Part shown: piece after piece, positions 34,760 to 56,751 of the stretch | Layout of the letters: every line of letters begins with the position of its first letter | How positions within the stretch are numbered: the first letter of the stretch is position 1 | Source: Minisyncoccota bacterium | GTDB taxonomy: Bacteria; Patescibacteriota; Minisyncoccia; Phycocordibacterales; PALSA-1337 | Length of the DNA: 64,000 nt | Assembly (NCBI GenBank): GCA_036170235.1 | Contig: JAVHOW010000017.1 | Coordinates: forward strand, 4,143-68,142 | Direction: 5' to 3' | Made by a program: the position numbers and the translations under genes | Notes under the pieces: generated by a model | Databases searched by the model: none | Seen by the model: the letters and a program-made list of their open reading frames with translations, nothing else | What the model was told of the DNA's origin: nothing

Positions 34760-35758
34760 ATGGCAATTCAGCATATTCTAATAACTGGCGGTACGGGATC
34801 TTTCGGATCAACTATGGCAAGTAGGCTGCTTAATGATGGTCGTATTTCAAAAGTAACAATTTTGAGTCGTGACGAGAAAAAACAACACGATATGCGTCAG
34901 CAATTTAGTTCGCCAAAAATCAGGTTTATTGTTGGTGATATCCGTGATTATCAGGCAGTCGATCAGGCTATGGAAGGGGTTGATGTTGTATTCCATGCGG
35001 CTGCGCTAAAACAAGTTCCTACAGGTGAGTTTTTTCCGATTGAATTAGTCAAGACTAATATTTTAGGAACACATAACGTCTTTCAGGCTGCAAAGAAGCA
35101 TCATGTAAAAAAAGTTATTTTATTGACTACTGATAAGGCGGTGTATCCAATTAACGCCATGGGAATATCAAAGGCAATGGCGGAAAAGGTAATGATTGCA
35201 GAGTCTGCGAACAGTAGTCAAACGGTTTTTTGTGGTGTCCGATACGGAAATGTTATGGCCTCGCGTGGGTCAGTTATACCCCTTTTTGTTGATGCTATGT
35301 TAGAGGGTAAGAATATAAAAATTACTGATCCACTCATGACTCGCTTTCTGCTTTCTTTGAACGACGCTATTGATCTAGTTGATTTTGCTATTCAACATGG
35401 ACAACAGGGTGACATCTTTATACAAAAAGCTCCAGCGGCTACTATTCGAGACCTCGGTCAAGCATTACTAAATATTTTCAACTCAAAAAGTAAGATAGAG
35501 CTTATCGGTACACGAGAAGGGGAAAAGATGCATGAGACATTGGCTACTTACATAGAGTTATCAAAGGCGCATGATATGGGCAAGTTTTATCGTATTAGTA
35601 ATATATTGGGACAGGATTATGGTCGGTATTATGAAAAAGGTAAAAAAAGAGGTTCATTGAAAGATTATACTTCAGAAAATACCAAACGTTTGTCAGTAAA
35701 ACAAATTGAAAAACTCCTACTATCTCTTGATTATATTCAACAGAAATTATCAAAATGA
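34760..35758 (+). CDS. fnlA: UDP-N-acetylglucosamine 4,6-dehydratase/5-epimerase (CapE/FnlA/WbjB type)
   Basis: Close collinear resemblance to S. aureus CapE as I recall it: LITGGTGSFGS, SRDEKKQ, FHAAALKQVP, YPINAMGISKAM, RYGNVMASRGSVIPLF, TDPLMTRF, IGTREGEK. Confidence 0.88.
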   Translation: MAIQHILITGGTGSFGSTMASRLLNDGRISKVTILSRDEKKQHDMRQQFSSPKIRFIVGDIRDYQAVDQAMEGVDVVFHAAALKQVPTGEFFPIELVKTNILGTHNVFQAAKKHHVKKVILLTTDKAVYPINAMGISKAMAEKVMIAESANSSQTVFCGVRYGNVMASRGSVIPLFVDAMLEGKNIKITDPLMTRFLLSLNDAIDLVDFAIQHGQQGDIFIQKAPAATIRDLGQALLNIFNSKSKIELIGTREGEKMHETLATYIELSKAHDMGKFYRISNILGQDYGRYYEKGKKRGSLKDYTSENTKRLSVKQIEKLLLSLDYIQQKLSK

Positions 35759-36870
35759 AGAAAATCGGCATTACAGGAAGCGGCGGATTTATTGGGTGGC
35801 ATCTTAGATGCGCCATAAAATCCTATTGTACGGATATTGTGCCTGTACTCATACCACGGACTGCATTTGATAATCCGGTTGAAATGGAAAAATATGTGTC
35901 AGAGTGTGATGTGATTGTGCATTTGGCTGGACTCAATAGGGCAGATGAACAGGTAATTTACCAGACAAACATTTCGTTGGTCCAAGCAATCATTAGTGCA
36001 TGTGTAAAGGGCAACGTATCTCCACAGATCGTTTTTTCATCATCAACGCACGTCGATAATAATACTGAGTACGGTAGATCGAAGAAAGATTCGGTCATGT
36101 TATTGAGAAATTGGGCCAATACGCATAAGGCAGTTTTTTCAAACATCATTATTCCGAATGTCTTCGGTGAATATGGGAAACCTTTTTACAATAGTGTTAT
36201 TGCAACATTTTGTCAGCAGATTGTCGATGGTACCCCATGTGATATCAAGAGTGATGGGGAGTTTAAGATTATATATGTCCAAGATGTAGTAAAAAATATT
36301 TTGGAAGCCATTGATACGAGATCAAATCAGGAATTGAGGCTTGTCGGCGTGCCTGTTTCTCCGCGGTCTATACATTCCAAACTTCTCGACTTTAAAGCAG
36401 ATTATGATCGGAATATCATACCAGAGTCTCAGTCTGATATTGATGTGCAATTATTTAATACGTTTAGGTCATTTTTATTTCCTGAATATTTTCCACGAAA
36501 ACTGGAACTTAAAACTGATAACCGTGGATCACTGTTTGAAATTATTAAAGGAAATACAAAGGGTCAAATTTTTTATTCTACGACCAAACCAGGAATTACA
36601 CGAGGAAATCATTATCATTTGAGAAAAATAGAGAGATTTTGTGTTGTACAAGGTAAAGCTGAAATATCATTGCGTAGGTTATTTACTGACAAAATACAGA
36701 CATATACAGTGGATGGAAGTCAGCCGGTCTATATCGACATGCCGACATGTACCACACATAATATAACTAATATTGGCCAGGATCCGCTTCATACCTTGTT
36801 TTGGTCAAATGAGGTCTTTAATCAACAAGACCCAGATACATACTCGGATACAATACCAACATCTAAATGA
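35755..36870 (+). CDS. fnlB: UDP-2-acetamido-2,6-dideoxy-hexose 3-epimerase/reductase (CapF/FnlB/WbjC type; SDR + cupin)
   Basis: HLAGLNRA, YNSVIATFC, TDNRGSLFEIIK, KPGITRGNHYH and QQDPDTY match the CapF layout. Confidence 0.85.
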   Translation: MKKIGITGSGGFIGWHLRCAIKSYCTDIVPVLIPRTAFDNPVEMEKYVSECDVIVHLAGLNRADEQVIYQTNISLVQAIISACVKGNVSPQIVFSSSTHVDNNTEYGRSKKDSVMLLRNWANTHKAVFSNIIIPNVFGEYGKPFYNSVIATFCQQIVDGTPCDIKSDGEFKIIYVQDVVKNILEAIDTRSNQELRLVGVPVSPRSIHSKLLDFKADYDRNIIPESQSDIDVQLFNTFRSFLFPEYFPRKLELKTDNRGSLFEIIKGNTKGQIFYSTTKPGITRGNHYHLRKIERFCVVQGKAEISLRRLFTDKIQTYTVDGSQPVYIDMPTCTTHNITNIGQDPLHTLFWSNEVFNQQDPDTYSDTIPTSK

Positions 36871-38012
36871 ACAAAGATCACATAAAAATTAAAGTTATGA
36901 CCGTAGTTGGAACTCGACCAGAGATTGTTCGTCTGTCCGAAGTAATTAAAGAACTTGATCTTCATACAGATCACTGTTTGGTTCATACAGGTCAAAATTA
37001 TGACTACGAGCTGAATGAAATATTTTTTAAGGAACTCAAATTGAGAAAACCTGATTATTTTTTGGATGCAGCAAAGAAAACTTCTGTAGGTACCATTGCA
37101 AACATTATTGCAAAGATAGACATCGTTCTTGAAAAGGAAAAACCAGATGCTTTTTTGGTTCTTGGCGATACAAACAGTTGCTTGGCTGCCTATGCAGCGA
37201 AACGAAGGAAAATTCCAATATTCCATATGGAAGCCGGCAATCGATGTTTTGATGAGCGCGTCCCCGAGGAGATCAATCGAAAAATTATTGATCATATAAG
37301 CGATATTAATATCACGTATAGTGATTTGTCTCGTACAAATTTATTGCGAGAAGGATTGTCACCGAACAGGGTGCTAAAAAGCGGGTCGCCGATGTATGAA
37401 GTTATCTCGGCCCATAAAAAGGAGATTGACTCTTCACGTGTACTTAAACGTTTAAAGCTTTCGCCGCGTGGATATTTTGTGCTCAGTGCACACCGCGAAG
37501 AGAATGTTAGTGATGATGGACAATTTCAGAGATTACTTGATATTATTCGAGTTGTTTCTGATACCTATAAACTGCCAATTATTTTTTCAGCTCATCCACG
37601 AACCAAGAAAAAGCTGGAAGAAAAAAATGTCATATTGCCGAAACAAGTTATTATTTCAAAGCCAATGGGTTTTTTTGACTTTGTTAAGCTTCAAATAAAT
37701 GCTGTTTGCACGCTCAGTGATAGTGGTACTATAAGTGAAGAATCATCCATATTGAAATTTTCAGCAATTAATTTGCGTGAAGCGCACGAAAGGCCAGAGG
37801 CTATGGATGAAACGGCCGTTATTATGACCGGGTTGAATACAAAACGTGTTATACAATCGATTGAATTGCTTACAGCCCAACGTGTATTAAAGAATGCAGT
37901 CACCACACCATCAGATTATATGGTGGGTAATGTGTCTAAAAAAATTGTTAGGATTATTTTGAGTCACGTCGATTATATTAATGTGCATGTATGGAAAAAG
38001 AGGTTAAACTAG
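36867..38012 (+). CDS. fnlC: UDP-N-acetylglucosamine 2-epimerase, non-hydrolysing (CapG/FnlC/WbjD type)
   Basis: VMTVVGTRPEIVRLS, HTGQNYDYELNEIFF, VLGDTNSC, IPIFHMEAGNRCFDERVPEEINR, SDSGTISEESS and AHERPE. Confidence 0.88.
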   Translation: MNKDHIKIKVMTVVGTRPEIVRLSEVIKELDLHTDHCLVHTGQNYDYELNEIFFKELKLRKPDYFLDAAKKTSVGTIANIIAKIDIVLEKEKPDAFLVLGDTNSCLAAYAAKRRKIPIFHMEAGNRCFDERVPEEINRKIIDHISDINITYSDLSRTNLLREGLSPNRVLKSGSPMYEVISAHKKEIDSSRVLKRLKLSPRGYFVLSAHREENVSDDGQFQRLLDIIRVVSDTYKLPIIFSAHPRTKKKLEEKNVILPKQVIISKPMGFFDFVKLQINAVCTLSDSGTISEESSILKFSAINLREAHERPEAMDETAVIMTGLNTKRVIQSIELLTAQRVLKNAVTTPSDYMVGNVSKKIVRIILSHVDYINVHVWKKRLN

Positions 38013-39555: not shown

Positions 39556-39673
39556 AGTTTGTGTATATTTATGTGTCCATACTATCTTAAATAATATATT
39601 TTGTCATTAAACGCGTCCTCTAGAAATTTTCCTGAAAATGAGGTACAGTCATGTTTCAAGACTCGTTATCACG

Positions 39674-41089
39674 ATGGAACATCCTACGCCCACAAAGCCA
39701 TCAACACCAAAGCCATTTTACAAGACGTACCTCAAGGGGGAGTTCTTTTTTGGTGTATGGAATGTAGTATCGCGCGGTGTTGGTTTTTTCAATACGCTGA
39801 TCGTACTTTCAAAGCTCACCGTCTATCAGTATGGTGTATTTCAGCTCATTTTGTCGTCATTTTCAGGCATTGCAGTCTTTATGGGGTTGGGAGGGGAAAC
39901 GATGCGTAATGACATTCTCCGCTATGTGGGCGAGCAGGATATTCCGCGTGCAAAGAGACTTTTCTATGAATCGACCGTTGCGCGCGTGGGGATTGGTATT
40001 ATCTTGTGGGCTGTAATATTTTTTGGTGCATCATTCTTTTTCTCAAAATACAGCACGGATTTTATATTCTACATTCGCATTATGTCGTTCCTGTTCCTTC
40101 ATGATGCGATTCTTCCTTCGCTGCGTTTGGCCCTGGAAGCTGAGAAAAAGTTCAGTTTGATTGCGAGCAGATCATCAATAAGTCGATTTATTCAGCTCGC
40201 CATCATCGCCTGGTTTTATTTCTTTGCATCTGTCGGACTCAAAGAAGTTATTCTTTCGCTTGTTGCTGCGTCATATATCTCAATTATTTTCATGGTAGTC
40301 CCTGTGGTGAGAAGTTATTTCAAAATATGGCGACAGTATCCAGTTGCTGGAGAATATATGACGTGGCCTCTTCTGTCTTCATATGGAAAGTGGGAGCTCT
40401 TGCGTCCAGTTGCGGCCAAATTGGTCGATTTCGTCCAGGTCTGGATGACAAAGTTCTTGATCAGTACCGAAGCTGTGGCTATATTCTCAGTAGCGCAGAC
40501 CATGATCGGAACGCTGGCGAACTTTATGCCAGTCAATACATTATCCGTACTTATACCGCTTCACATTGCCGAAAAGGAGAAACTTCAAAAAATATATAAC
40601 ACTGGCACGAAATATCTCATCCTTTTCTCAATCGTTGTTGGTATTGGTGGACTTATTGCCGCACAGCCATTTATCCATTGGTTCTTTCCAAAATATATCG
40701 CGGCATTGCCATATTTTGATGTTCTGTTATTGACGTTACCAATTACGGCTGCGACAGCAGTCGCAGGAGTATTTTTCGTTGTGTATCGTCGACAGGGGTT
40801 CTTGTTGTTCCAAAAGCTTATGAAAGGTGTCTTGGGAATCGCCCTGTACGCGCTCTTGATACCAGTCTTTGGTATGTGGGGTTTGGTAGTGCAAGCAATT
40901 ATACTGTCATTGGTTCTTTTCGTAATTGTGTATGTATACATGGTCAGATCAAAACTTGATGTCAGTCTCAATTGGAAATATCTGACCAGTTATAATGACG
41001 CGGACAAAGAGTTCCTCAGGAATTTCTTTTCGGATGTGAAAAAGGTTATGGGGAGATGGATCCCGTCATTTGCAAAAACCAAAGAATAG
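39674..41089 (+). CDS. polysaccharide flippase (Wzx / MOP superfamily-like)
   Basis: About 12-14 hydrophobic segments in a layout typical of oligosaccharide flippases. Preferred start is ATG 39674. Confidence 0.7.
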   Translation: MEHPTPTKPSTPKPFYKTYLKGEFFFGVWNVVSRGVGFFNTLIVLSKLTVYQYGVFQLILSSFSGIAVFMGLGGETMRNDILRYVGEQDIPRAKRLFYESTVARVGIGIILWAVIFFGASFFFSKYSTDFIFYIRIMSFLFLHDAILPSLRLALEAEKKFSLIASRSSISRFIQLAIIAWFYFFASVGLKEVILSLVAASYISIIFMVVPVVRSYFKIWRQYPVAGEYMTWPLLSSYGKWELLRPVAAKLVDFVQVWMTKFLISTEAVAIFSVAQTMIGTLANFMPVNTLSVLIPLHIAEKEKLQKIYNTGTKYLILFSIVVGIGGLIAAQPFIHWFFPKYIAALPYFDVLLLTLPITAATAVAGVFFVVYRRQGFLLFQKLMKGVLGIALYALLIPVFGMWGLVVQAIILSLVLFVIVYVYMVRSKLDVSLNWKYLTSYNDADKEFLRNFFSDVKKVMGRWIPSFAKTKE

Positions 41090-41108: not shown

Positions 41109-41918
41109 TTACCAAGCAGTCTGACCTCCATCTACAACTATGTTGCTGGCGGTGACGAATTCTGACGCCTTTGAAGAGAGGAATAGGATGACACCACGGT
41201 ATTCATCTGGCTGAGCTGGTCTGCCAAGCATATTTCTGGAGCCAAGTTTGGCTAAAAATTCTGGTTCCATTGATCCAAAATTGACCGCGCCAAATGAGAC
41301 TGAGTTTACGCGTACTCCAGGTGCTACAGCGGCAAAATATGATGCCCATGCGCGAGTAAGTCCAAGCAGGGCAGTCTTGACCGTCGGGTAGGCGACTGAT
41401 TTAAATTTACCTTTTTCATATTTTCCATGCTGTGGAGCGGTAATGGCGGAAGTAGAGGAAATGTTTATGACAGATCCTTCTTTTTGCTTCATCATGTAGG
41501 GCGCTACTGCTTGTGTGCAGAATTGGGCTCCCGAGAGGCCAACAGAAATTTCTTTTTCCCATTGGGGTTGGGGGTATTTTTCATAGGGGCTGAACATCGC
41601 CTCATCAGCCGCAGTAGCATCTTTGCCGACTTTCGGATTGAGAGCGGCATTATTAATGAGAATGTGGATACCTCCGTGAGCTGACGCGACTTCGTCAACA
41701 ACTTTTTTTATATCTAGTGGTTTCGTAATGTCTACGATATATTGGTCAGCAATGCCGTCGAGTGCGGGGTTTTTTGTCATATCAAATGATACAACATGTG
41801 CCCCCGCATCTTTTAAAATAGTTGCGTGTTCAATACCAAGTCTTCCTGCACCACCAGTAATGATGGAGGTTTTTCCTTCGAGTGAAAAAAGCCTGAGTAT
41901 TTTTTTAGTATTAATCAT
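41109..41918 (-). CDS. SDR-family oxidoreductase
   Basis: GKTSIITGGAGRLGIEHA (TGxxxGxG), NNAA and a Y-x3-K context (AYPTVK). Confidence 0.82.
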   Translation of the reverse strand: MINTKKILRLFSLEGKTSIITGGAGRLGIEHATILKDAGAHVVSFDMTKNPALDGIADQYIVDITKPLDIKKVVDEVASAHGGIHILINNAALNPKVGKDATAADEAMFSPYEKYPQPQWEKEISVGLSGAQFCTQAVAPYMMKQKEGSVINISSTSAITAPQHGKYEKGKFKSVAYPTVKTALLGLTRAWASYFAAVAPGVRVNSVSFGAVNFGSMEPEFLAKLGSRNMLGRPAQPDEYRGVILFLSSKASEFVTASNIVVDGGQTAW

Positions 41919-41929
41919 AATGGTGGTTT

Positions 41930-42739
41930 TTATGTAACTAGCTTTCGTACGAAGTCTAGATACGTGGTATTGAGTGATACATCGTCGATTTGCGCGTCGC
42001 GTGCACCTTGGAGAATATAAGGTCCATTGTAGCCGATGCGATTGAGTGCGTCAAAAGCTCCACCAAAATCGGCAGTACCTGTGCCGAGCCGTACACTCTC
42101 ACCTCCGTTTTCCCGTCTGTCTTTTATGTGTACACCTTTGATCAATTGTCCGAGCGTTAGGATGTCATGTGCGAGATTGACACCCATACTCGCCATATTC
42201 CCAATATCATAGTAGATACCGATAGCTGGTGAATTGAACGATTCGACAAATTCTTTCAATTCTGGTGCGGACATTTCCGCCTCAATGGCAATTGAGATAC
42301 CATATTTCTCTGCACACGTTAGTGGTTTGGCGAGTTGGGAGCGGGCTTTTTTCTTGTCTGTTTCGGTTCGTAGGATCATATCATTGAAAAAAGATACCAG
42401 AATTGTCCGAGCTCCAATGAGTGATGCTTGGGCAATGAGTGTGCAGTATACATCGGGATACCATGATTCTGATGAGAAGAATCCGTGTATAGATGGTGTT
42501 TCAATCCTATATTTTTTTTGTAGTGCCACTATCTTTTGTGTGCCGGTTTCAGTAAACAGTGGATTGTGGTGGTATCCATCTTTTTTTACCAGCAATTCAA
42601 TACATGAGAATCCTATTTTCTGAGCACTACTGAATTCATCGCGCCACTCTGTGTCGGGAAAAAACTGGATGCCTCTACCGTTTGAAGGTGTCAGTCGTCC
42701 TTGCAAGATCCCAATTCTATTGTGCGCCTTGGAAGCCAT
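41930..42739 (-). CDS. sugar phosphate isomerase/epimerase (xylose-isomerase-like TIM barrel)
   Basis: GFSCIELLV, IAIEAE and VHIKD, elements typical of AP_endonuc_2/IolE-like barrels. Confidence 0.65.
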   Translation of the reverse strand: MASKAHNRIGILQGRLTPSNGRGIQFFPDTEWRDEFSSAQKIGFSCIELLVKKDGYHHNPLFTETGTQKIVALQKKYRIETPSIHGFFSSESWYPDVYCTLIAQASLIGARTILVSFFNDMILRTETDKKKARSQLAKPLTCAEKYGISIAIEAEMSAPELKEFVESFNSPAIGIYYDIGNMASMGVNLAHDILTLGQLIKGVHIKDRRENGGESVRLGTGTADFGGAFDALNRIGYNGPYILQGARDAQIDDVSLNTTYLDFVRKLVT

Positions 42740-43701
42740 TATTTTTTCTTTTTTCCGATAAAAATGATATTTGAAGTAATCTTCAGATCCGCAAGTGTTT
42801 TTTTGTATTCAATATCCACACGCTTGATGAATGCATCAAGTGTCTTCGTAATGCGTAGGGAAACATTCTTTCGAATAGGAAGAACTGGCGCCGATAGTCC
42901 AGCAAGTGGTGTACCTTGAGGAGCATCATTTACGATCCAGTTCATGTGGTTCAGGATATTGTAGTCTTGCGTGTGAAAAGTTTTACCCTTGAATCCTGAG
43001 GCGGACATGACTTTTTCGAGGCTTTTTTCGGTGAAATACCAGAGATGGGATTTGTGATAGAAAAATTGATAATGACGAGGCAAGTCATACATGTGTGCCA
43101 AAGCGTCATTGAGATTTGGCACTTCGATAGCGATAACACCACCTGGTGCAAGATATTCTTCAAGGCCCGCAATGAATGTTCTATGGTCGCTCACATGTTC
43201 GAGCGTTTGAAATGCAACTATCACGTCAAAGTATTTCTTCTTCAAGGGAGTTTCTTTGATATCTGTTGTGTAAACCTTGCACTTGCATTTTTTGGCTGCA
43301 TACGCTGCTGACGCTAGATCAAAATCAATGCCAACAATTTCTTTTACTAAAGGCTTTACATGATGAAGAAACATGCCAGCTGAACAACCAACTTCAAGCA
43401 ATTTTGTTTTCTTGGTGAGATATGGTTTGAGCAGGCGTAAGCGATCTACTTGGAATCTTTCGTATATAGAAAATAGTTCATCAGTCTCGGATGTTGCCGC
43501 AAGTTTTGGTCGGCCAATCTTGCGGTATTCGCTCGCGTAATATTTTTTGAGATCTGCTACGCTAATATGTGCATCGAGGATGCCAAGTTCACAATGTGAA
43601 CACAGAAAAACTTTTCGCTTTTCTCCGGTGCGTAGAGTGTTGGCAATTACTTTTGATGATGTTTTGTTACAAATGGGGCAGTTCATGATAGTTTTGGCCA
43701 T
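42739..43701 (-). CDS. SAM-dependent methyltransferase with N-terminal zinc ribbon (C-methyltransferase-like)
   Basis: CPICNK...CSHCELG, then LLEVGCSAGMF and AFQTLEHV. Confidence 0.75.
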   Translation of the reverse strand: MAKTIMNCPICNKTSSKVIANTLRTGEKRKVFLCSHCELGILDAHISVADLKKYYASEYRKIGRPKLAATSETDELFSIYERFQVDRLRLLKPYLTKKTKLLEVGCSAGMFLHHVKPLVKEIVGIDFDLASAAYAAKKCKCKVYTTDIKETPLKKKYFDVIVAFQTLEHVSDHRTFIAGLEEYLAPGGVIAIEVPNLNDALAHMYDLPRHYQFFYHKSHLWYFTEKSLEKVMSASGFKGKTFHTQDYNILNHMNWIVNDAPQGTPLAGLSAPVLPIRKNVSLRITKTLDAFIKRVDIEYKKTLADLKITSNIIFIGKKKK

Positions 43702-44624
43702 TGGGCAGGATCTACTTGGTTTGGTGTATTAAGTGCGATTTTGTGTAATCTGACGACAATCTCTGATGGCAATGGACCGTCTTTAAGAGCGTTCACTGCT
43801 TTTTGTACATTACCAATTTTATTGCTACCAATCAATGAGGATGAAATTAGTGGACTATTGAGTGCGAAACGGATGGCTAATGTCGGTAGGTCAGTGCCTA
43901 TTTCGCGAGCGATTGTTTCAATTTCGTCAATGGTGTGTTGCAAACCTTCAAGACCTGCAGGTAACTTTTTTCTTAGTGCGGTAAGAGATCCTTTTAGAAG
44001 GACTGATCTATTTATGATTCCAACACCAGCTTTTTGTGCCGCAAGGAATACACGAGGTTCCATGCGCTGGTCAGGAACATTGTACGCAACCTGTATGACA
44101 TCAAAGAAGCCTGAATTAATAGCTGAAAGCGGCGACTCTTCACCTCGCGTTGAAACTCCAGTGAAGCGAATTTTTCCGGCCTGTTTGAGATCCTTCAATA
44201 TTCCAGTCAATTCACCTCGTTCGATATCTTCAACACTCGGTCCATGCAACATCAGTATTGGCAGGGAGTCAATCTGTAATTTTTCTAGACTTTCATTGAC
44301 TTGCACACTTATTTTTTCTGTAAGCTCTGGAAGTGAATATTTTTCGCCCTTTTCAAGAAACTGCGCGCATTTTGTTTCTACGATAATGTCTGGATCTTTG
44401 AGTATTCCTGATTTACCAATACGCTCTTCAGCCACGCCGTAATAGCTGGCCGTATCAAAAAAAGTAATGCCGAGGTCGACTGATTGTCTGAGGAGATCGA
44501 TAGCTTCAGTTTCGGAAGGAAGCGGTCTCTCACCAAGTCCATAAGAAAAACCAATTTCCGCAGTTCCAAGTCCAATACGAGAAACCTTGAGTCCGGTGCG
44601 GCCAAGTTTCGAATACGTCATCAT
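43683..44624 (-). CDS. aldo/keto reductase
   Basis: YSKLGRTGLKVSRIGLGTAEIG, FFDTASYYG and LMLHGP. ATG 44624 forms an ATGA overlap with the upstream stop. Confidence 0.85.
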   Translation of the reverse strand: MMTYSKLGRTGLKVSRIGLGTAEIGFSYGLGERPLPSETEAIDLLRQSVDLGITFFDTASYYGVAEERIGKSGILKDPDIIVETKCAQFLEKGEKYSLPELTEKISVQVNESLEKLQIDSLPILMLHGPSVEDIERGELTGILKDLKQAGKIRFTGVSTRGEESPLSAINSGFFDVIQVAYNVPDQRMEPRVFLAAQKAGVGIINRSVLLKGSLTALRKKLPAGLEGLQHTIDEIETIAREIGTDLPTLAIRFALNSPLISSSLIGSNKIGNVQKAVNALKDGPLPSEIVVRLHKIALNTPNQVDPAQWPKLS

Positions 44625-45994
44625 GAGAGTAATTCGGCGAAGCATTCGTCGATGACTGTCACACCCTCGATAAGTGCGGCGTCGGGTATGGTGAGCGGGG
44701 GGCCAATCTTTATTGATTCTCTACCGGTATGAACCATGAGGAGTCCCTTCTGCATTGCACGCTCGCAGATGTGGGTCGCAAGTTCGCTCAGGGGTGCACC
44801 CTTAGTATCCTCAATAATAAGTGCGGCCACCATGCCGGTTCCCAAAATTCTGGCAATAACTTTCGGATATTTCGCTTTAAGTTTGGCTAGTTCTGTGTGG
44901 AGAATCTTTCCTTTGCGTCCGGCTTCTGCAACAAGTCCCTTTTTCTCAAAATAATTTAGAGTCGCGAGACCAGCCGCACATCCGAGCGGTTGTGCTGAGT
45001 GCGTACTCGACATTGAACCAAAAGCGGGAATATCGAGGATATTCTTACGGCCAATGACTGCGGAGATGGGGAAGCCGCTGCCAAGCGCTTTTCCGAGGCA
45101 CAGCAAATCAGGGGTTACGTCGTAGTGCTGATAGCAGAATAACTTACCTGTTCGGCCGAAGCCGGATTGGATTTCATCAAACATGACCAGTATACCGTGC
45201 TTCCGGGCGAAGGCAACAAGCGCTTGGATATACGCTTTCGGGTAGAGTACTGCACCCCATCCTTGGTACGACTCGATCGCGAATCCTATGACCTTCTTCA
45301 TGTTCACGCCACTCTTTTCGAGGGTGTGCATATCTTTTTCAAAATGTTTTTTCCAATCATATCCTTTATTTTCATGTTTCCATGAATAAGGGAATGGGAC
45401 GTGGTGTATATTCGGGTCTGCATGACCGATCCAGGCGGATGAGTCTGGACGGCCGCGAAGCATCTCGGCGCCCATGGTTCGCCCGTGCATGCTTCCAGTG
45501 AATGAAATAATGCCGACGCGGTCGGATGAAGTCTGCTGACCGTAGAGTCGCATCAGTTTGAGGGCGCACTCGGACGCTTCTGTTCCCGATGAAACCAGGA
45601 ATGCTTTTTCACAGAATGCTGGAGTGAATTCGACAAGTTTTTTAAGGAATTGCGCGCGAATATTGCTGGCAAAGGTATAGGTATGAATCAGTGGCTGTTT
45701 GAGTTGAGTTTGCATAGCCTTGATAACGTCTGGATTTGAATGTCCTGCATTGGCCACGAAAATAGTTGAAGTGAAGTCTATCCAACAGTTGCCGTGCTTG
45801 TCGAATACTTGGAAATCTTTTGCTTTGTCCCAGACTATCGGCAATTGGCCGTGCATCGATCGCGACTCATATTTCTCGAGCTCTGCGAAAATATCAGCTG
45901 TTCCTGGCGCAGGAATTGCGGTCCGAATCTTGCGGTATTTGGTGCTGATGGCGGGTACGCGTGCCAGTTTTTTTGAAAAATCTGAATGGGCCAT
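44621..45994 (-). CDS. class III (GABA/GSA-type) pyridoxal-phosphate aminotransferase
   Basis: SGTEASECALKL, FDEIQSGFGRTGKLF and LCLGKALGSGFPISAV (PLP lysine). Confidence 0.85.
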   Translation of the reverse strand: MAHSDFSKKLARVPAISTKYRKIRTAIPAPGTADIFAELEKYESRSMHGQLPIVWDKAKDFQVFDKHGNCWIDFTSTIFVANAGHSNPDVIKAMQTQLKQPLIHTYTFASNIRAQFLKKLVEFTPAFCEKAFLVSSGTEASECALKLMRLYGQQTSSDRVGIISFTGSMHGRTMGAEMLRGRPDSSAWIGHADPNIHHVPFPYSWKHENKGYDWKKHFEKDMHTLEKSGVNMKKVIGFAIESYQGWGAVLYPKAYIQALVAFARKHGILVMFDEIQSGFGRTGKLFCYQHYDVTPDLLCLGKALGSGFPISAVIGRKNILDIPAFGSMSSTHSAQPLGCAAGLATLNYFEKKGLVAEAGRKGKILHTELAKLKAKYPKVIARILGTGMVAALIIEDTKGAPLSELATHICERAMQKGLLMVHTGRESIKIGPPLTIPDAALIEGVTVIDECFAELLS

Positions 45995-46758
45995 TATTTT
46001 TTTGGAAAATTCTTTTTTAAATACTCGTAAATATCCCAGGCTGTTTTCTCAAGATTATACTCGGTGAACCGGAAATCTTCCTTCGAGTCGATCTCGCCAG
46101 TATCTGGGCTGGTATACGCCAGAATTTTTGGACCGTGCAAGCTCGATGAGTTCATAATATGTTTTGTGACTAAAATGTCAACGTAGCCATCTGGCTGATA
46201 TACAGGAGGAAATGTTTGTCGTGGTAGGTCGTAATATTCTGGACGAGGATCATCAGGAAAAAGTCCGGTAAAGTGTCCGTCATTGATGCCAAATAGTTTG
46301 TAGGGCGATTCGCGAATCTCGTGGCCCGATCGTAGTGACGTTGACCCTTTTGATGTACGCATGAGTTTGATAGCCTCATCTATGTGACGGGAATTGCGGA
46401 GGGGAGTTGTTGGTCGTAAATACACTAGAAAATCAGGGTGGTGATTTTCATTCTTCTTGAGCCAGTCGAGGACGTGCCTGATGACGTCTATGTCCTTTGA
46501 TTTATCAGTCGCGTATTCATCTGGTCGGAGAAACGGAACTTCAGCTCCATAGTGTCGCGCGATTTCCGCAATTTCTTCGTTGTCGGTACTGACAATAACG
46601 CGCTCAATATCTTTAGATAACTTCGCAGCGGCAATAGAGTAGGCGATCAGAGGGTATCCAGCAAGTGAATGCACGTTCTTTTTTGGCACACCCTTCGAAC
46701 CACCTCGTGCAGGAATGAGTGCGATGACTTTGTGCTTTGTTGGGCGCTTTGGCTTCAT
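45994..46758 (-). CDS. acylneuraminate cytidylyltransferase family (CMP-nonulosonate synthetase)
   Basis: VIALIPARGGSKGVPKKNVHSLAGYPLIAYSI and YLRPTTPLR. Confidence 0.85.
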   Translation of the reverse strand: MKPKRPTKHKVIALIPARGGSKGVPKKNVHSLAGYPLIAYSIAAAKLSKDIERVIVSTDNEEIAEIARHYGAEVPFLRPDEYATDKSKDIDVIRHVLDWLKKNENHHPDFLVYLRPTTPLRNSRHIDEAIKLMRTSKGSTSLRSGHEIRESPYKLFGINDGHFTGLFPDDPRPEYYDLPRQTFPPVYQPDGYVDILVTKHIMNSSSLHGPKILAYTSPDTGEIDSKEDFRFTEYNLEKTAWDIYEYLKKNFPKK

Positions 46759-46843
46759 AGTGAAGGATTATAGCTGGTGTAAGGAGGAAATACAAAGGTC
46801 TATTTGACTTATAAAGTCGCAGTATTTTTATTAATAAAAAAAT

Positions 46844-46869
46844 CCGGCAGGGGTTTGGGACCCTGCCGG
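46844..46869 (-). terminator. rho-independent terminator of the GC-rich neuB-like gene
   Basis: ccggcaggg/ccctgccgg stem. An A-run on the plus strand at 46834-46840 gives a U-run on the minus-strand transcript. Confidence 0.65.
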
Positions 46870-46892
46870 TTGTTTGCATGACTGATTATTGG

Positions 46893-47909
46893 TTAACCTG
46901 GAGATGTTCGCAACCAAGCGACACCGACGTCGGAACGCGGAGAGCGACGCACGCGGCGCAGTTTCTTTGCGACCTCCTCTTCGCCGGGGTAGATGACGAT
47001 CTTGCCGTTACCTTTGGCAACGTCGAGTTCCTTGACCGCCTTGAAGAGGCGACTGAACTCTGCCGGCTCAAGGGAGCTCGCTTGATCTGAACCGTACATC
47101 CCGCGTTCGAGCGTGATGTGGACCTCGATCATACACGCGCCCATGGCAACCGCCGCATACACCGGCATGATGCCGCTGAAGTGGCTGGAGAACCCGACGG
47201 GAACATCGAAGGTGTCAGCCAAGACTTCGATGCCGTTGAGGTTGACCATCGACAGAAGCTCGTCACCGTGCTCCGTACCTTTTGGATAGACACTGGTGCA
47301 GTGTAGGATGATGAGGTTTTCCTTGCCGAGAACATCAACCGCCGCGCCCACACCATATATGTCCGTCATGCCCGTCGAGAGAATGACCGGCTTGCCAGTC
47401 TTGCTCACTGCCGCCAAAAGTTCGTCGTCTTCGTTGCATGCAGACGCGATCTTGTGACACGGGAGGTTGAAGGGAATCATCCGGGCCAGTGCCTGGGTGT
47501 CCCAGCACGAGGTCAACCAGACGATTCCTTTTTCCGCACAGTAAAAATCAATTGCGCGGTATTCATCATCAGTAAACTCGAGAATCCGCTTGAGGTCACC
47601 GTTGGTGGTGTTTTCGAAATCCGACTGCATTAGTCGTTCGACAGAAAGCGGTGGAAGTACGCCACGCTTGATGCCGTTTTCGATCATTGATCGAGGGACG
47701 GGCCGTGCTTTTGCCAGTTCTTCTGGCGTATACACGACTTCGATCGTGCGAGTCTGGAATTTGACCGCATCGGCACCTGCCTTTGCAGCCGTGTCGATGA
47801 GTTGCTTCGCAATCTTGATGTCGCCATTGTGATTGATGCCGATTTCCGCGACAATAAAGCACGGGCAATTGGGGCCGACAAGTCGGCCGTTGATGTTAAG
47901 AACTTTCAT
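46893..47909 (-). CDS. neuB: N-acetylneuraminate (nonulosonate) synthase NeuB family, GC-rich, SAF domain apparently truncated
   Basis: CFIVAEIGINHNGDIKIAKQLIDTAAKAGADAVKFQTR. 39/60 G+C in 46921-46980, against 27/60 in 46741-46800. The C-terminus RRSPRSDVGVAWLRTSPG is far shorter than a SAF domain. AAGGAAG lies 8 nt before the ATG. Confidence 0.82.
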   Translation of the reverse strand: MKVLNINGRLVGPNCPCFIVAEIGINHNGDIKIAKQLIDTAAKAGADAVKFQTRTIEVVYTPEELAKARPVPRSMIENGIKRGVLPPLSVERLMQSDFENTTNGDLKRILEFTDDEYRAIDFYCAEKGIVWLTSCWDTQALARMIPFNLPCHKIASACNEDDELLAAVSKTGKPVILSTGMTDIYGVGAAVDVLGKENLIILHCTSVYPKGTEHGDELLSMVNLNGIEVLADTFDVPVGFSSHFSGIMPVYAAVAMGACMIEVHITLERGMYGSDQASSLEPAEFSRLFKAVKELDVAKGNGKIVIYPGEEEVAKKLRRVRRSPRSDVGVAWLRTSPG

Positions 47910-48027
47910 TTTGTTTCTTCCTTGGTTGGTGGTTGCCGAATAAATTCAGTGACTCAAGGAGTGAGTCTACTATAAAGCTAACACGACATCCTAGACGTGA
48001 CACTATTGACGCATAAGCATATAAATG

Positions 48028-48729
48028 CTACTTTTTTTCCAACCAAATCCAAAAATAACGCTGACCTTCACCTTCAGATTTGATAATGGTGAGTGGTAGA
48101 TCTCTGATGAGCTTGTTTGCATCAGCAACAGAAAAAGAAGGACCGTAGAACCAATTCTTTTTGCTGGTCGGTAAGCCACGAAGTTGTATTTTTGCGATAC
48201 CATTTGGACGAAGTACACGTGATACTTCCGTCAGATTCTTTTCAATAGTCTGTCTGTCCGGCATGTGCTGAAATACTATAAATGAAAAAACGAAATCAAA
48301 TGAAGAATTGGCAAATAGGAAACTGGTCCCGTCTGTTGCTTTGAAAGAAATGTTTTTCGTTGAAGCGAGTCGTTGACCGCCTTTACGTATCATCTCTTCG
48401 GAAATATCTACAGCTGATATCGTTTTGAAATTTTTTGAAAGAAATTCAGTAATACGACCGATACCGCATCCAATTTCCATAACATCTTTAGTGTTGAAAG
48501 GAGAGAGGCGACTTTGAACTAAGGTGTCACCGGCAATAAGCTCATTATAGTCTTTCATGCCTGAAGCCCTAAACTGTTCTTCGGTGATACCTTCTCCATA
48601 ATCAGTCATCACAAAATATGCGGCATTTTTCTCAGCCAGCGAGTTCCACTTTTTCTTGCTGTCGATAAGGTTCTCTGTCGGTACAAAGCTATTAATTAGT
48701 GTGTGAATCCATTTTTTGACAGTATGCAT
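48028..48729 (-). CDS. class I SAM-dependent methyltransferase
   Basis: VMEIGCGIGRITEFLSKNFKTISAVDISEEMI and SFIVFQHMP. Confidence 0.78.
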   Translation of the reverse strand: MHTVKKWIHTLINSFVPTENLIDSKKKWNSLAEKNAAYFVMTDYGEGITEEQFRASGMKDYNELIAGDTLVQSRLSPFNTKDVMEIGCGIGRITEFLSKNFKTISAVDISEEMIRKGGQRLASTKNISFKATDGTSFLFANSSFDFVFSFIVFQHMPDRQTIEKNLTEVSRVLRPNGIAKIQLRGLPTSKKNWFYGPSFSVADANKLIRDLPLTIIKSEGEGQRYFWIWLEKK

Positions 48730-48748
48730 AAGTATGCGCTATTGTATC

Positions 48749-50068
48749 ATGGCATTCATGAATGTCACCTCACCCGTTCGAAAGCCGAGGATAGTGCTCG
48801 TACCACATTATACCGGTAGCCTCAGGTATTACGAGAAGCTCGGCGAATATCTCAAGGAACACTACGACGTCTCTTTTCTATTGATTCAATTGCCGCGCCT
48901 TGGTAGAAAAAGTTACACCGCATCCCATTATAATTTTGATGAGATGGTGTCGCGTTGTACGGAGAAGGGTCTTACTTTTTATACGATTCGTCAACCGGCA
49001 CCATTGCCTTTGCTCGCTCGATTTCCATTCATACAATTTCTTGCGTCTGCTCGTACCTACGCTCGCGATGTCAGTAACGTCTTGTCCGACACACGTATCC
49101 GAAAACTCATCGCGATCAATGATGCTGGTTTTTATTTTGGCACCATTTTTGGAGAAGCAAAGAAGCGAGGAATAAAGACATATGTACTTCAGTGGGACGT
49201 AACGTACGACGTGCAAGCCAATGGCGCTTCAATGAAATCAATTTCCGCATGGCGTCGTTCGGTGCATGCGGTGAGAAAAAACATTGAGAATTCAATAAAA
49301 GCACTGATGCTAAAATTTGTTGCTGGACGTAATGCGCGCAATGTAAAATCTGTGCCAGGATCAAATCTATCGGACAAATTTGGGGTCATCAATCAGCAGG
49401 CTTTTGATTATTTTTCTTCTCTTGGGGTGCAACAAGAAAAAATGACAGTTGTAGGGTATCTCGATTTCCATGTGACAACAGTGCTCAAACAAAGACTTGA
49501 TACCGATGTGTCTGTGAGGGCTGACGTCGCACATCGATTGGGGATTAATGTATCAAAAAATAATATTGTCATTTTTAGTTCAGCATATAATTCTAATGTC
49601 GTGCATGTGCTTGATGATGCTGGCCAGCTTGCGTTCTATGAGGAAATCATTGAGATGATTCGCGAGTCATGTCCGGCAGAACATTATGCTATATCTATTA
49701 AAATTCATCCTATCGAAAATGCTACACTTTATGAGCCTCTCAAACAGCGCGGAGTGAAAATATATGATAAATTTATCGACAATGCCGAATTGATTTATTT
49801 TTCTGATCTATATATTGCAGATAGTACGACGGTCAATTTTGTACCCGTATTGATGAATAAAAAAGCTCTGTTTGTTAATTTTGTTAAATTACCACTTATT
49901 GAAGCGTCGCGAGAATATTTTGGTATCAAAAAATACATTACTGACAAAGACGAGTTCCGTGCTCTGATTAAGGCTTATGCAGGTGGTCATCTCGAGTCTC
50001 AATATGATTCGGATACGCGCATTTTTACCAAGGATTCATTAAAGAGAATAGTTGAGTGGATCGGATAA
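48749..50068 (+). CDS. hypothetical protein, possibly GT-B-like capsule/teichoic-type transferase
   Basis: About 440-aa soluble protein in the glycan island with no firm motif. The start is ambiguous (48734/48749/48758). It diverges from the methyltransferase gene. Confidence 0.35.
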   Translation: MAFMNVTSPVRKPRIVLVPHYTGSLRYYEKLGEYLKEHYDVSFLLIQLPRLGRKSYTASHYNFDEMVSRCTEKGLTFYTIRQPAPLPLLARFPFIQFLASARTYARDVSNVLSDTRIRKLIAINDAGFYFGTIFGEAKKRGIKTYVLQWDVTYDVQANGASMKSISAWRRSVHAVRKNIENSIKALMLKFVAGRNARNVKSVPGSNLSDKFGVINQQAFDYFSSLGVQQEKMTVVGYLDFHVTTVLKQRLDTDVSVRADVAHRLGINVSKNNIVIFSSAYNSNVVHVLDDAGQLAFYEEIIEMIRESCPAEHYAISIKIHPIENATLYEPLKQRGVKIYDKFIDNAELIYFSDLYIADSTTVNFVPVLMNKKALFVNFVKLPLIEASREYFGIKKYITDKDEFRALIKAYAGGHLESQYDSDTRIFTKDSLKRIVEWIG

Positions 50069-53980: not shown

Positions 53981-54829
53981 ATGAACGCACTATATAATAC
54001 CCCAAAAATCATCGCGGAAATCGCCTCGTCCCATAATGGCGACATTGAGCTGGCAAAAAAGATGATCTGGGCGGCAAAAGATGCGGGTGTTGATATTGTG
54101 AAGTTCCAATCCTGGCAGAGTAAAAATGTCGACGAGTCGGATCCTGACAAAAAGCGCTACGCATCACTCGAACTTTCAGACGAGGCTCATATTATTCTCA
54201 AGAAAGAATGTGAAAAGGCTGGCGTTAAATTTATGACGACTTGCTATGATGCCGCACGCATTCCGTTTCTAAAAAAACTTGGCCTCACGTCGATAAAAGT
54301 TGCTAGTACTGATCTCAAGCACTACGCATTTTTGCAGAAACTTCGTGACAATTTTGATGAAGTCATTGCTTCGGCCGGCATGACGACTGAAGATGAGATC
54401 AAAAAAGCGCTCAAGATATTGAAAAATGGTGAGTTTACGATTATGCACTGCGTGTCGGTCTATCCATGTCCTTTGGAAAAAGCTAATCTTGGCAAGTTGG
54501 TATGGCTCAAAGAGCAAACGCCTCATGTTGGCTATTCCGATCACGTGCAAGGTGCGGTAGCAGCCATACTTACTCTTGGCATGGGTGTAAAATATATTGA
54601 AAAGCATTTTACCCTCGACCGCGAGACGCCACAGCCGGACCACACTGTCGGCAAAGGGCTGAAACCAATCACTACGCATAGTATTGCAGATGAGCCGGGC
54701 GTATTCAAGGAACTTGTTGAATGGAGGGATCGCTTTGTTACTGCTCTGGGCACGAGCAGTCTCGAACTGTTGCCTGAGGAGAAACTGACCCGCGCAAAAT
54801 ACACCGGCAGACTTGGTAATAATAGCTAA
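53981..54829 (+). CDS. neuB: NeuB-family nonulosonate synthase (no SAF domain)
   Basis: KIIAEIASSHNGDIELAKKMIWAAKDAGVDIVKFQSW and MHCVSVYPCP. Confidence 0.8.
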   Translation: MNALYNTPKIIAEIASSHNGDIELAKKMIWAAKDAGVDIVKFQSWQSKNVDESDPDKKRYASLELSDEAHIILKKECEKAGVKFMTTCYDAARIPFLKKLGLTSIKVASTDLKHYAFLQKLRDNFDEVIASAGMTTEDEIKKALKILKNGEFTIMHCVSVYPCPLEKANLGKLVWLKEQTPHVGYSDHVQGAVAAILTLGMGVKYIEKHFTLDRETPQPDHTVGKGLKPITTHSIADEPGVFKELVEWRDRFVTALGTSSLELLPEEKLTRAKYTGRLGNNS

Positions 54830-54833
54830 TTAG

Positions 54834-56042: not shown

Positions 56043-56751
56043 TATTTTATGTGTCATCACTGCTCGTGGCGGGTCGAAAGGGATACCATGCAAGAATATA
56101 AAGATGCTCGGAGACAAACCGCTTATCGCTTACAGCGTTTTGGCGGCCTCAAAAAGTAAACTCATTACTCATACTATCGTCTCCACGGATGATCCGGAAA
56201 TAGCCGAAGCGGCAAAAAAATATGGTGCAGATGTGCCATTTATGCGCCCCAAAGAAATAGCGCAAGACATGACTCCGCATGTGCCAGTCATGCAGCACGC
56301 CATCGATTTTATGGAAAAGAAACTGGGTATTGTGTTTGATTATACAGTTATTTTCCAGCCAACTTCACCATTCAGGCTGACGGAGGACATTGATGGAACT
56401 CTCAATATTCTTATTGATTCGAAGGCCGATAGTGCGGTCAGTCTTGTCAAAGCCGACTCACATGAACATCCGATCAAGATGAAAAAATTGGAGGGAACCA
56501 AAGTTGTCCCGTACTGTATCCCCGAACCAGAAGGAATCGGGCGACAAGGTCTATCTCCGGTATATCGCCGCAGTTCAGCTGTTTATGCGATGAGACGTGA
56601 TATTATTATCAAAAATAGTAAACTATTTGGTGATAATATTGTTGGATACGTTGTTCCAGAAGAAAGATCAATAGATATAGATACACCATTTGATTGGATT
56701 AAAGCAGAATATATGCTTCAGGATTTAAAAAATAAAGGATACACATGGTAG
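56020..56751 (+). CDS. neuA: acylneuraminate cytidylyltransferase (CMP-nonulosonate synthetase)
   Basis: ILCVITARGGSKGIPCKNIKMLGDKPLIAYSV and IFQPTSPFR. I chose the ATG at 56020, which overlaps the neuC end. Confidence 0.85.
   Translation: MIKKQMINILCVITARGGSKGIPCKNIKMLGDKPLIAYSVLAASKSKLITHTIVSTDDPEIAEAAKKYGADVPFMRPKEIAQDMTPHVPVMQHAIDFMEKKLGIVFDYTVIFQPTSPFRLTEDIDGTLNILIDSKADSAVSLVKADSHEHPIKMKKLEGTKVVPYCIPEPEGIGRQGLSPVYRRSSAVYAMRRDIIIKNSKLFGDNIVGYVVPEERSIDIDTPFDWIKAEYMLQDLKNKGYTW

Follow-up and report, generated by a model that had tools for sequence, protein, structure and literature searches.

The 64,000-nt stretch of DNA analyzed here, which is referred to as the window, comes from contig JAVHOW010000017.1 of a Minisyncoccota bacterium. 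On its minus strand, at positions 41109-48729, it carries eight genes that combine a NeuB-family ulosonic acid synthase and a cytidine monophosphate (CMP)-ulosonic acid synthetase with an atypical set of tailoring enzymes. As listed in Table 1, these are a class I S-adenosylmethionine (SAM) methyltransferase (MT1), the NeuB-like synthase (NeuBL), the CMP-transferase (CTP), a class III pyridoxal phosphate (PLP) enzyme (AT3), an aldo/keto reductase (AKR), a second methyltransferase (MT23), a xylose-isomerase-like TIM barrel (TIM), and a short-chain dehydrogenase/reductase (SDR). Families were assigned by means of Pfam, and the equivalog and subfamily models of NCBIfam were scored against their own cut-offs. 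All eight open reading frames (ORFs) begin with ATG and lie exactly where a preliminary description of this DNA had placed them, and its family calls hold for each of them at the Pfam level. In the NCBIfam scan, none of the eight reached the cut-off of any equivalog model. The gene set probably encodes an atypical, uncharacterized CMP-ulosonic acid pathway and is best placed among the nonulosonic/ulosonic acid biosynthesis clusters. Relative loci are numbered L001 and onwards.

Table 1. Genes and other features of the window, with the gene set first and the surrounding features below it
Feature	Position	Strand	Match or other detail
MT1, class I SAM methyltransferase, 233 aa	48028..48729	-	Pfam Methyltransf_25, 3e-20
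NeuBL, NeuB-family ulosonic acid synthase condensing phosphoenolpyruvate (PEP), 338 aa	46893..47909	-	PF03102 NeuB, 2e-62, in two stretches
Terminator-like hairpin and T-run between the NeuBL and CTP genes	46844..46869	-	9-bp stem, 8 GC pairs
CTP, CMP-ulosonic acid synthetase, NeuA/PseF/LegF branch, 254 aa	45994..46758	-	PF02348 CTP_transf_3, 7e-21
AT3, specialized class III (GabT-like fold) PLP enzyme, 457 aa	44621..45994	-	PF00202 Aminotran_3, 9.5e-89
AKR, aldo/keto reductase, 320 aa (313 aa from Met8)	43683..44645	-	PF00248 Aldo_ket_red, 1.4e-36
MT23, methyltransferase with N-terminal four-Cys Zn-ribbon, 320 aa	42739..43701	-	PF13489 Methyltransf_23, 5.5e-23
TIM, xylose-isomerase-like TIM barrel, 269 aa	41930..42739	-	PF01261 AP_endonuc_2, 3.1e-21
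SDR, classical oxidoreductase, 269 aa	41109..41918	-	adh_short_C2, 5.4e-35
Promoter-like site for MT1	48768..48741		
Candidate ulosonic acid transferase, 457 aa	51107..52480	+	Weak NCBIfam match, BFO_1060 family glycosyltransferase, 1.1e-8
Multi-pass membrane protein, probably a Wzx-type flippase	39638..41089	+	Abuts the SDR gene; no Pfam match at 1e-5
Three ORFs, 450, 358, and 457 aa	48716..52480	+	No Pfam match at 1e-5
Canonical nonulosonic acid set	53981..56751	+	SAF-less NeuB (282 aa), NeuC, second PseF-like cytidylyltransferase
NeuC of the canonical set	54834..56042	+	Score 350.9, above the equivalog cut-off of 235.9
FnlA-like, CapF/WbcJ-like, and WecB-type 2-epimerase genes	34760..38012	+	
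ORF antisense to AKR, 233 aa	43741..44442	+	
Wzy_C protein with tetratricopeptide repeats (TPR), MurB-like protein, SecA	56851..63976		

The preliminary description had noted that the last six genes are tightly packed with four overlapping junctions, and this was borne out. The overlap is 1 nt between CTP and AT3 (at 45994), 19 nt between AKR and MT23 (43683-43701), and 1 nt between MT23 and TIM (at 42739), and AT3 overlaps AKR by 25 nt when counted from the first ATG of AKR, or by 4 nt (44621-44624) when AKR starts at Met8, as had been assumed before. TIM and SDR are separated by 11 nt. The two upstream junctions are wider, with 118 nt between MT1 and NeuBL and 134 nt between NeuBL and CTP. 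The latter gap holds a strong terminator-like hairpin, the tail of which reads ATTTTTTTAT, and a TATAAT sequence lies 8 nt before the ATG of CTP. Because this hairpin directly follows NeuBL, the single eight-gene operon that had been proposed is doubtful, and a six-gene unit with two separately transcribed upstream genes is more likely, the hairpin and the TATAAT being consensus matches and not measurements. MT1 is kept only in the closest relatives of the locus (L004-L006, 87% identity) and is a peripheral member of the module, probably with a promoter of its own, as there is a promoter-like site in front of it. The window gave no match in either the tRNA or the Rfam scan.

NeuBL belongs to the PF03102 family, with a TIM-barrel domain that carries the metal- and PEP-binding residues, and scored far below the cut-offs of the NCBIfam models for NeuB (TIGR03569, 218.6 bits, cut-off 399.65) and PseI (TIGR03586, 176.6 bits, cut-off 340.25). 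When aligned to the NeuB of Neisseria meningitidis, in which we take the metal and PEP residues to be Glu25, Lys53, Gln55, His215, Glu234/His236, and Asp247, it keeps the motifs EIGINH, VKFQ (KxQ), SSH (SxH), EVH (ExH), and GSD (GxD), and these catalytic motifs are invariant across the NeuBL subfamily. There was no PF08666 match to a SAF domain in NeuBL, the alignment of which stops at residue 284 of the 349 residues of N. meningitidis NeuB with 26 query residues remaining. The SAF, or antifreeze-like, domain of the N. meningitidis enzyme touches the N-acetyl group of the substrate. NeuBL further has an insert of about 30 aa (residues ~62-95), is about equally far from the solved NeuB, PseI, and SpsE proteins (95-114 bits), and shares 31% identity with the second NeuB of the window. 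Its GC content of 0.55, and of 0.655 at third codon positions (GC3), makes it an outlier compared to the window (0.419). The GC content of AT3 is raised as well (0.49), and the composition of both genes is compatible with recent horizontal acquisition. CTP was matched by the PseF model over positions 1-219 of 222 (E 3.9e-40; 137.8 bits versus a cut-off of 205.7), and KdsB models matched its N-terminus only, so that by sequence it classifies as a PseF/NeuA-type and not a KdsB-type enzyme.

More than 100 homologues of NeuBL were found, with identities of 49-83%, and where a source is named it is mostly Patescibacteria/Parcubacteria. Within this candidate phyla radiation (CPR), three independent neighborhoods repeat the NeuBL, CTP, AT3, AKR, Zn-ribbon methyltransferase, TIM, and SDR families, with NeuBL identities of 60% (L003), 79% (L004-L006), and 55% (L009). 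Each of the three has AT3 on the other strand, and L004 has TIM and SDR there as well. Since the set survives such strand rearrangement, selection appears to act on the gene set itself. AKR orthologues are 52-88% identical in L003, L004, L009, and L029. When the window is compared with L004, CTP, AKR, and MT23 are 84-91% identical, versus only 37% for AT3, 35% for TIM, and 43% for SDR. AT3, TIM, and SDR have thus been exchanged for genes of the same family, which suggests strain-level variation of the sugar; gene swapping of this kind is typical of surface-glycan diversification. Some relatives (L007 and L011) carry NeuBL and CTP without the tailoring set.

Scanning species-representative genomes with an alignment of NeuBL brought up 80 loci (41-50% identity), located in Chloroflexota, Acidobacteriota, Myxococcota, Nitrospirota, Omnitrophota, and Verrucomicrobiota, as well as in Desulfosarcina variabilis and in a Nanoarchaeota metagenome-assembled genome. 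The flanking ORFs of 85 NeuBL loci were clustered into partner families, the commonest of which is SDR, present in 46 of the 85 loci. A CMP-transferase was found in 34 loci, a CMP-transferase fused to a KdsC-type haloacid dehalogenase (HAD) phosphatase in 23, and a free KdsC-type HAD in 22, so that the free and fused forms together bring the KdsC-type HAD to as many as 45 loci. Other partners are a GFO_IDH_MocA oxidoreductase (29 loci), the TIM-barrel family of the window (23), an acetolactate-synthase (ALS)-like thiamine pyrophosphate (TPP) enzyme (20), a Glyphos_transf-like protein that is homologous to the window ORF at 51107-52480 (20), a Zn-ribbon methyltransferase (19), and a GmhA-like SIS isomerase (18), and NeuC homologues are present in only a few of the loci. 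The typical order in Chloroflexota is Zn-ribbon methyltransferase, Glyphos_transf-like protein, CTP, CTP-HAD fusion, NeuBL, TIM, GFO, SDR, and SIS, and TIM and SDR come after NeuBL in many phyla. A wider core, consisting of NeuBL, CTP (often KdsC-fused), TIM, and SDR, extends across Chloroflexota, Acidobacteriota, Myxococcota, and others. The preliminary description considered such a set unexpected for this lineage, which overstated the case, as NeuBL has its many, mostly patescibacterial homologues and the core module is widespread beyond the CPR and not specific to this lineage.

The CTP-KdsC-type phosphatase fusion, approximately 413 aa long, is located directly upstream of NeuBL in Chloroflexota and other phyla (L016, L018, L024, L036, L051, L052, L055, L056, L082, and others), is often adjoined by a second, stand-alone cytidylyltransferase, and its cytidylyltransferase half is 41-45% identical to CTP of the window. 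The HAD of L004 scored 109.7 against the cut-off of 106.95 of the KdsC subfamily model TIGR01670, and 89.7 bits with the KDN-9-P phosphatase model. A second type of neighborhood, found in Acidobacteriota and others (L017, L022, L033-L035, L046, L047, L053, L057, L064, L066, and L074), has NeuBL and a HAD followed by the ALS-like TPP enzyme, often beside genes for glucose-1-P cytidylyltransferase, epimerase/dehydratase, DegT, and GmhA-like SIS proteins, and split transketolases are present in other loci (L091 and L094). Such neighborhoods suggest that the precursors supplied to a NeuB-type synthase are chain-extended or branched aldoses. For NeuBL loci outside the CPR in general, there are two annotated cases in cultured bacteria, located on plasmids of Azospirillum thermophilum and Methylomagnum ishizawai, and the Methylomagnum locus comprises a split transketolase, a class III aminotransferase, SDR, NeuB, and HAD.

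AT3 has more than 120 homologues at at least 60% identity, including sequences from Omnitrophota, WOR-3, and Margulisbacteria. A metagenome scan with an AT3 alignment, together with three looked-up contigs, gave 83 AT3 loci. The gene directly upstream of AT3 encodes a CMP-transferase in 71 of these, and 7 more are situated at contig ends, and one homologue (P0214), a single case, is a fusion of CTP_transf_3 and Aminotran_3 domains. The gene directly downstream encodes a 143-aa protein with a glyoxalase/vicinal oxygen chelate (VOC) fold in 65 of the loci, and in these versions from outside the CPR its slot is the one that AKR fills in the window. NeuBL is present in 54 of the 83 loci, a short methyltransferase in 43, the Zn-ribbon methyltransferase in 31, SDR in 20, TIM in 17, SIS in 15, and HAD in 11. 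In a Margulisbacteria contig the order is HAD-NeuB-CTP-AT3-VOC-MT23-SIS-TIM-SDR-SDR, which is the order of the window with VOC replacing AKR. The sequences show the gene families, their conserved co-occurrence, their order, and a single fusion. The CTP-AT3 fusion and the strict adjacency of both genes suggest, at the level of gene organization, that amination is coupled to CMP activation. Radical-SAM proteins also join the NeuB-CTP-AT3-VOC core outside the CPR (L093-L096, L101, L107, L110, and many others), with a 266-aa SPASM-type protein in 33 of the 83 loci and a B12-binding protein in 18, a hint that C-methylation or some other radical tailoring takes place in those loci, of which the window has none.

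These data bear on the possibility, foreseen in the preliminary description, that the NeuB and CMP-transferase genes are unrelated neighbors of the rest. NeuBL and CTP would then be a plain pair of the 3-deoxy-nonulosonic acid (Kdn) or N-acetylneuraminic acid (Neu5Ac) type, and the five downstream genes would constitute a separate sugar or polyol pathway in the same island. The terminator-like hairpin between NeuBL and the six packed genes, the outlying GC3 of NeuBL, and the loci L007 and L011 would all agree with such a division. However, the hairpin leaves CTP with the tailoring genes, CTP and AT3 share 1 nt, they are neighbors in 71 of the 83 loci and parts of one protein in a single case, NeuBL accompanies AT3 in 54 of these loci, TIM and SDR follow NeuBL in many phyla, and the set is kept through rearrangement. 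Because of the fusion and the adjacency statistics, we regard a separate downstream pathway as quite unlikely, and the genes as linked in function.

AT3 scored below the cut-offs of all NCBIfam equivalogs, the GabT and ArgD models included. In an alignment with Escherichia coli GabT it keeps the equivalents of the PLP lysine, the Asp/Gln pair, Thr297, and Arg141 (CLGKAL, FDEIQ, SSTHS, and MHGRT), and replaces Glu211 with Trp (QGWG) and Arg398 with Lys (SIKIG). In GabT, the Glu211/Arg398 pair recognizes glutamate/2-oxoglutarate, and Arg141 binds the distal carboxylate. Both replacements are common to the 37-39% identical AT3 proteins of L003, L004, and L009, and since the same two active-site changes span 37-100% identity, AT3 represents one specialized clade, the amino donor or reaction type of which may differ from GabT. 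Among solved structures, AT3 comes closest to a broad-specificity amino-acid racemase (7.8e-61) and to 4-aminobutyrate (GABA) aminotransferases. Together with the retained Arg141 equivalent, this would fit an alternative in which AT3 and its partners make or racemize an amino-acid-like substituent, such as a 4-aminobutyryl, beta-alanyl, or D-aminoacyl group, on an ordinary nonulosonic acid, and nonulosonic acids with amino-acid-derived N-acyl groups are known. Yet the module has no ATP-grasp enzyme, acyltransferase, or ligase for the attachment, nor an aminotransferase/acetyltransferase set to make an acylatable amino-nonulosonic acid, and the fusion and adjacency with CTP point to the sugar as the substrate of AT3. 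An aminoacyl substituent is therefore unlikely compared to amination of the sugar itself.

For AKR, the best match in the PDB is L-galactose dehydrogenase (2e-26). SDR, a candidate for an oxidation or a keto-reduction, resembles gluconate 5-dehydrogenase (128 bits versus a cut-off of 279) and KduD (97 bits). In the PDB, nothing matched SDR at an E value of 1e-25 or lower, so that a specific relative did not emerge. MT23 had been described as a C-methyltransferase-like enzyme with a Zn-ribbon. The four cysteines of the ribbon can be seen in the N-terminal sequence (CPIC...CSHC, and CPLC...CLGC in relatives), but the C-methyltransferase label was not upheld, as there was no match to PF08421 or PF08484, only to the generic families Methyltransf_23, 11, 31, 25, and 12, and the weak PDB matches (TylM1 at 2.6e-5, DesVI, phosphoethanolamine and phosphatidylethanolamine N-methyltransferases, and NodS) are mostly N-methyltransferases. 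MT1 further matched NodS (4.3e-8) and Methyltransf_PK, an N-terminal amine methylase family (6.2e-8), in Pfam, and the PmtA phospholipid N-methyltransferase model of NCBIfam (3.6e-11, below cut-off). The weak specific matches of both proteins are thus mainly to N-methyltransferases, and MT23 is possibly an N-methyltransferase, judging from these similarities. The TIM barrel was previously named an isomerase/epimerase, of which the xylose-isomerase-like barrel stood, the enzymatic label being uncertain. TIM matches UlaE (9.5e-9) and D-allulose 3-epimerase (5e-7), stays below the UlaE equivalog cut-off, and keeps the Asp (YDIGN) and His (VHIKD) of the UlaE/ketose-3-epimerase site, a Glu-Asp-His-Glu tetrad in which two Glu are catalytic. 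However, its GPYILQGA segment aligns to GPYLIEMW of UlaE, so that the second catalytic Glu is replaced by Gln (ILQGA), as in 23 of 24 members of the TIM family, a subfamily distinct within these barrels. Because Gln takes this position, it is unlikely that TIM functions as a classical two-base 3-epimerase.

Canonical neuraminic (Neu; NeuC/NeuB/NeuA), legionaminic (Leg), and pseudaminic acid (Pse) clusters share with the module the PF03102 PEP condensation, the PF02348 CMP activation, and the location in a surface-glycan island. Unlike these clusters, the module lacks NeuC, PseB/LegB, PseC/LegC, PseH/LegH, and PseG/LegG, and its synthase is SAF-less. The Pfam search of the eight ORFs revealed no 4,6-dehydratase (PF02719/PF01370), DegT aminotransferase (PF01041), hexapeptide or GNAT acetyltransferase, or PF02350 member. 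The Kdn pathway, with Kdn-9-P synthase, a KdsC-type phosphatase, and CMP-Kdn synthetase, shares with the module a NeuB-family synthase without amino-sugar genes and a NeuA-type cytidylyltransferase, and relatives of the module carry KdsC/KDN-9-P-phosphatase-like HADs. Moreover, in Serratia marcescens KL1/KL2, a NeuA and a NeuB with a COG1082 domain have been tied to KDN production, a fusion that likewise associates NeuB with a xylose-isomerase-like TIM barrel of the same superfamily (PMC9000132). In contrast to the Kdn pathway, the window also encodes a class III PLP enzyme, AKR, SDR, and two methyltransferases, no equivalog model is reached, and a phosphatase is absent within the 64 kb, where tblastn with 45 HAD and CTP-HAD sequences found no HAD and hence none of the KdsC type (C0 HAD).

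Two further systems offer partial parallels. The 8-amino form (Kdo8N) of 3-deoxy-octulosonic acid (Kdo) is made in Shewanella by the KdnB oxidase and the KdnA aminotransferase, which act on Kdo, so that here too a non-amino ulosonic acid is oxidized to a carbonyl, transaminated, and CMP-activated. However, the eight ORFs include neither an Fe-alcohol dehydrogenase (KdnB) nor a KdsA-type synthase, the synthase being of the NeuB type, and KdnA is a sugar-aminotransferase-type enzyme, whereas AT3 is of class III. TylB/TylM1 and DesV/DesVI are aminotransferase and N,N-dimethyltransferase pairs of nucleotide-sugar pathways. Like the module, they combine an amine-forming PLP enzyme with SAM methyltransferases, and the nearest solved relatives include TylM1 and DesVI, a methyltransferase likeness that is weak (E about 1e-5). 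Work on a nucleotide-linked sugar is also possible for the module, as the CTP-AT3 fusion suggests, but the TylB and DesV systems use DegT-type enzymes on dTDP-hexoses, as opposed to the class III fold and CMP carrier here.

The preliminary description knew of no pathway that this combination matches, and our comparison is in agreement with this, since all equivalogs are below cut-off and the marker enzymes of the Leg, Pse, Neu, and Kdo8N routes are absent from the eight ORFs. In a literature search on the gene combination, on nonulosonic acids of the CPR, and on Kdn-9-P, no account of the module came to light, only partial precedents (PMC9000132 and PMC7371886). It is best read as a route of its own, separate from those to Neu, Leg, Pse, and Kdo8N. 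Alternatively, it might be a divergent Leg, Pse, or Neu route that leads to an already known nonulosonic acid by means of non-orthologous enzymes. NeuB and PseF are indeed the best NCBIfam matches of the synthase and the CMP-transferase, and a Pse-like Vibrio cluster contains a cytidylyltransferase-AKR fusion, a dehydrogenase, and a methylmalonyl-CoA-epimerase-like protein (PMC7371886). Against this stand the equivalog scores, which are all far below cut-off, the missing 4,6-dehydratase, DegT aminotransferase, N-acetyltransferase, and NeuC/PseG hydrolase, the single amine-forming enzyme, the KdsC-type phosphatases that accompany the NeuBL family, and the canonical NeuB/NeuC/CMP-transferase set that the island already has, with a NeuC above its cut-off. 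In view of the missing enzymes we consider a divergent known route very unlikely.

The reading that we favor, with slightly better than even confidence, is that the module is a route to a CMP-activated, Kdn-like 3-deoxy-2-ulosonic acid other than Neu5Ac, legionaminic acid, or pseudaminic acid, which is aminated and probably N-methylated. A modified ulosonic acid of this kind was already suggested in the preliminary description and, with the eight families confirmed, remains the best explanation. From the gene content we infer the substrate, the order of the steps, the position of the amination, N- or O-methylation, and the product as follows. The SAF-less NeuBL would join PEP to an aldose that has no acetamido group and is probably phosphorylated, which gives a Kdn-like acid; the KdsC-type phosphatase of relatives would dephosphorylate this product there, and a corresponding phosphate step is presumed here. 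The PseF/NeuA-type CTP would then attach CMP, after which SDR and/or AKR would make a carbonyl that AT3 could convert to an amine, perhaps on the CMP-sugar. A possible rationale for amination at this stage is that a free amino-ulosonic acid could cyclize onto its own C2 keto group, which a CMP-glycoside cannot. TIM may rearrange a center adjoining a carbonyl, and the methyltransferases would methylate the product, plausibly at the new amine. Finally, the Glyphos_transf/BFO_1060-like candidate transferase would use the CMP-sugar within the surface-glycan island. Two variants were considered and set aside. Amination of C2 of the alpha-keto acid by AT3 was rejected since it would presumably remove the anomeric hydroxyl that the CMP-transferase needs, and a ten-carbon acid made from heptose-7-P, which the GmhA-like SIS partners might imply, was not adopted, the family name being the sole basis for it.

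Several points weigh against this pathway. AT3 lacks the residues by which GabT recognizes glutamate/2-oxoglutarate, and may not be a transaminase at all, since its closest solved relative is the amino-acid racemase, and the TIM barrel is without one catalytic Glu. The window, when scanned for the HAD, SIS, GFO, TPP, VOC, and radical-SAM partners of the relatives, contained none of them, so that a HAD phosphatase, a SIS isomerase, and a GFO oxidoreductase are missing from the 64 kb. The minimal NeuB-CTP-AT3-VOC-methyltransferase core elsewhere often has no nearby dehydrogenase that could make the carbonyl. The low identity of AT3, TIM, and SDR to their counterparts in the nearest relative, L004, means that the products may differ between strains, and a product has been observed from no member of the module. 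Nevertheless, the fusion, the adjacency statistics, and the enzymes missing from the alternatives make all three rival explanations less likely than the aminated and methylated Kdn-like acid. A broader interpretation, which we offer tentatively and regard as somewhat improbable, is that the window contains one member of a widespread pathway family, not described in the literature searched, for a new class of sialic-acid-like sugars. A dedicated class III PLP enzyme would in this case aminate a Kdn-type acid after CMP activation or coupled to it, and N-methylation would follow. Patescibacteria, Omnitrophota, Margulisbacteria, Chloroflexota, and further phyla that are largely uncultured would thereby have surface sugars of zwitterionic or cationic character.

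Nonulosonic acids shape the recognition of bacterial surfaces by hosts, phages, and partner cells. To our knowledge, only a few biosynthetic routes have been described, namely those for Neu, Leg, Pse and their epimers, Kdn, and Kdo/Kdo8N, and we know of essentially no information on the surface chemistry of episymbiotic CPR bacteria. The module would add a route with a different class of aminating enzyme and different tailoring chemistry, carried by episymbiotic CPR bacteria and, beyond them, by many further phyla without cultured members. With the conserved NeuB-CTP-AT3 core and the fused form of CTP and AT3, there are clonable genes and thereby a tractable way to a possibly new class of surface sugars.

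The gene set is located in a large surface-glycan island with GT1, GT9, and GT2 glycosyltransferases. The preliminary description had left it unconnected to the canonical NeuB/NeuC/CMP-transferase set of the same island, which is found approximately 5 kb away; in L001 and L004, too, it is conserved along with the module. The organism probably makes two different CMP-ulosonic acids. We also considered whether NeuC, at 6 kb, could feed NeuBL, and rejected this since NeuC goes with a NeuB and a CMP-transferase of its own and is a rare companion of the NeuBL family. Of the three plus-strand ORFs between the module and the canonical set, the first two are conserved in close relatives only. Homologues of the third (51107-52480), with 21-31% identity, occur at about 20 NeuBL loci across phyla and show faint or weak Glyphos_transf matches. 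Because of its weak BFO_1060 match and the fact that it travels with NeuBL, this protein is a candidate transferase, and it probably consumes the CMP-sugar. The flippase orthologue of L004 is 85% identical, occupies the same position, and has a weak Polysacc_synt match.

Further upstream, the FnlA-like, CapF/WbcJ-like, and WecB-type 2-epimerase genes represent a UDP-L-FucNAc-type 6-deoxy-hexosamine pathway, and only the WecB-type enzyme passes its equivalog cut-off, the other two remaining below theirs. The plus-strand ORF opposite AKR has similar antisense counterparts in other genes of the region, and most likely none of these ORFs is coding, each being a shadow of the gene on the minus strand. 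At its 3' end, with the Wzy_C+TPR protein, the MurB-like protein, and SecA, the window is syntenic with contigs of Patescibacteria, Candidatus Taylorbacteria, and Candidatus Nomurabacteria, to which SecA is 64-73% identical, so that the lineage assumed in the preliminary description was a reasonable one. A Wzy_C (O-antigen-ligase-like)+TPR protein next to MurB and SecA was found in several Parcubacteria lineages (the window, L003, L008, L020, and L030). Variable glycan islands, NeuBL-bearing ones among them, are inserted next to this protein, and the site has the look of a conserved hot spot.

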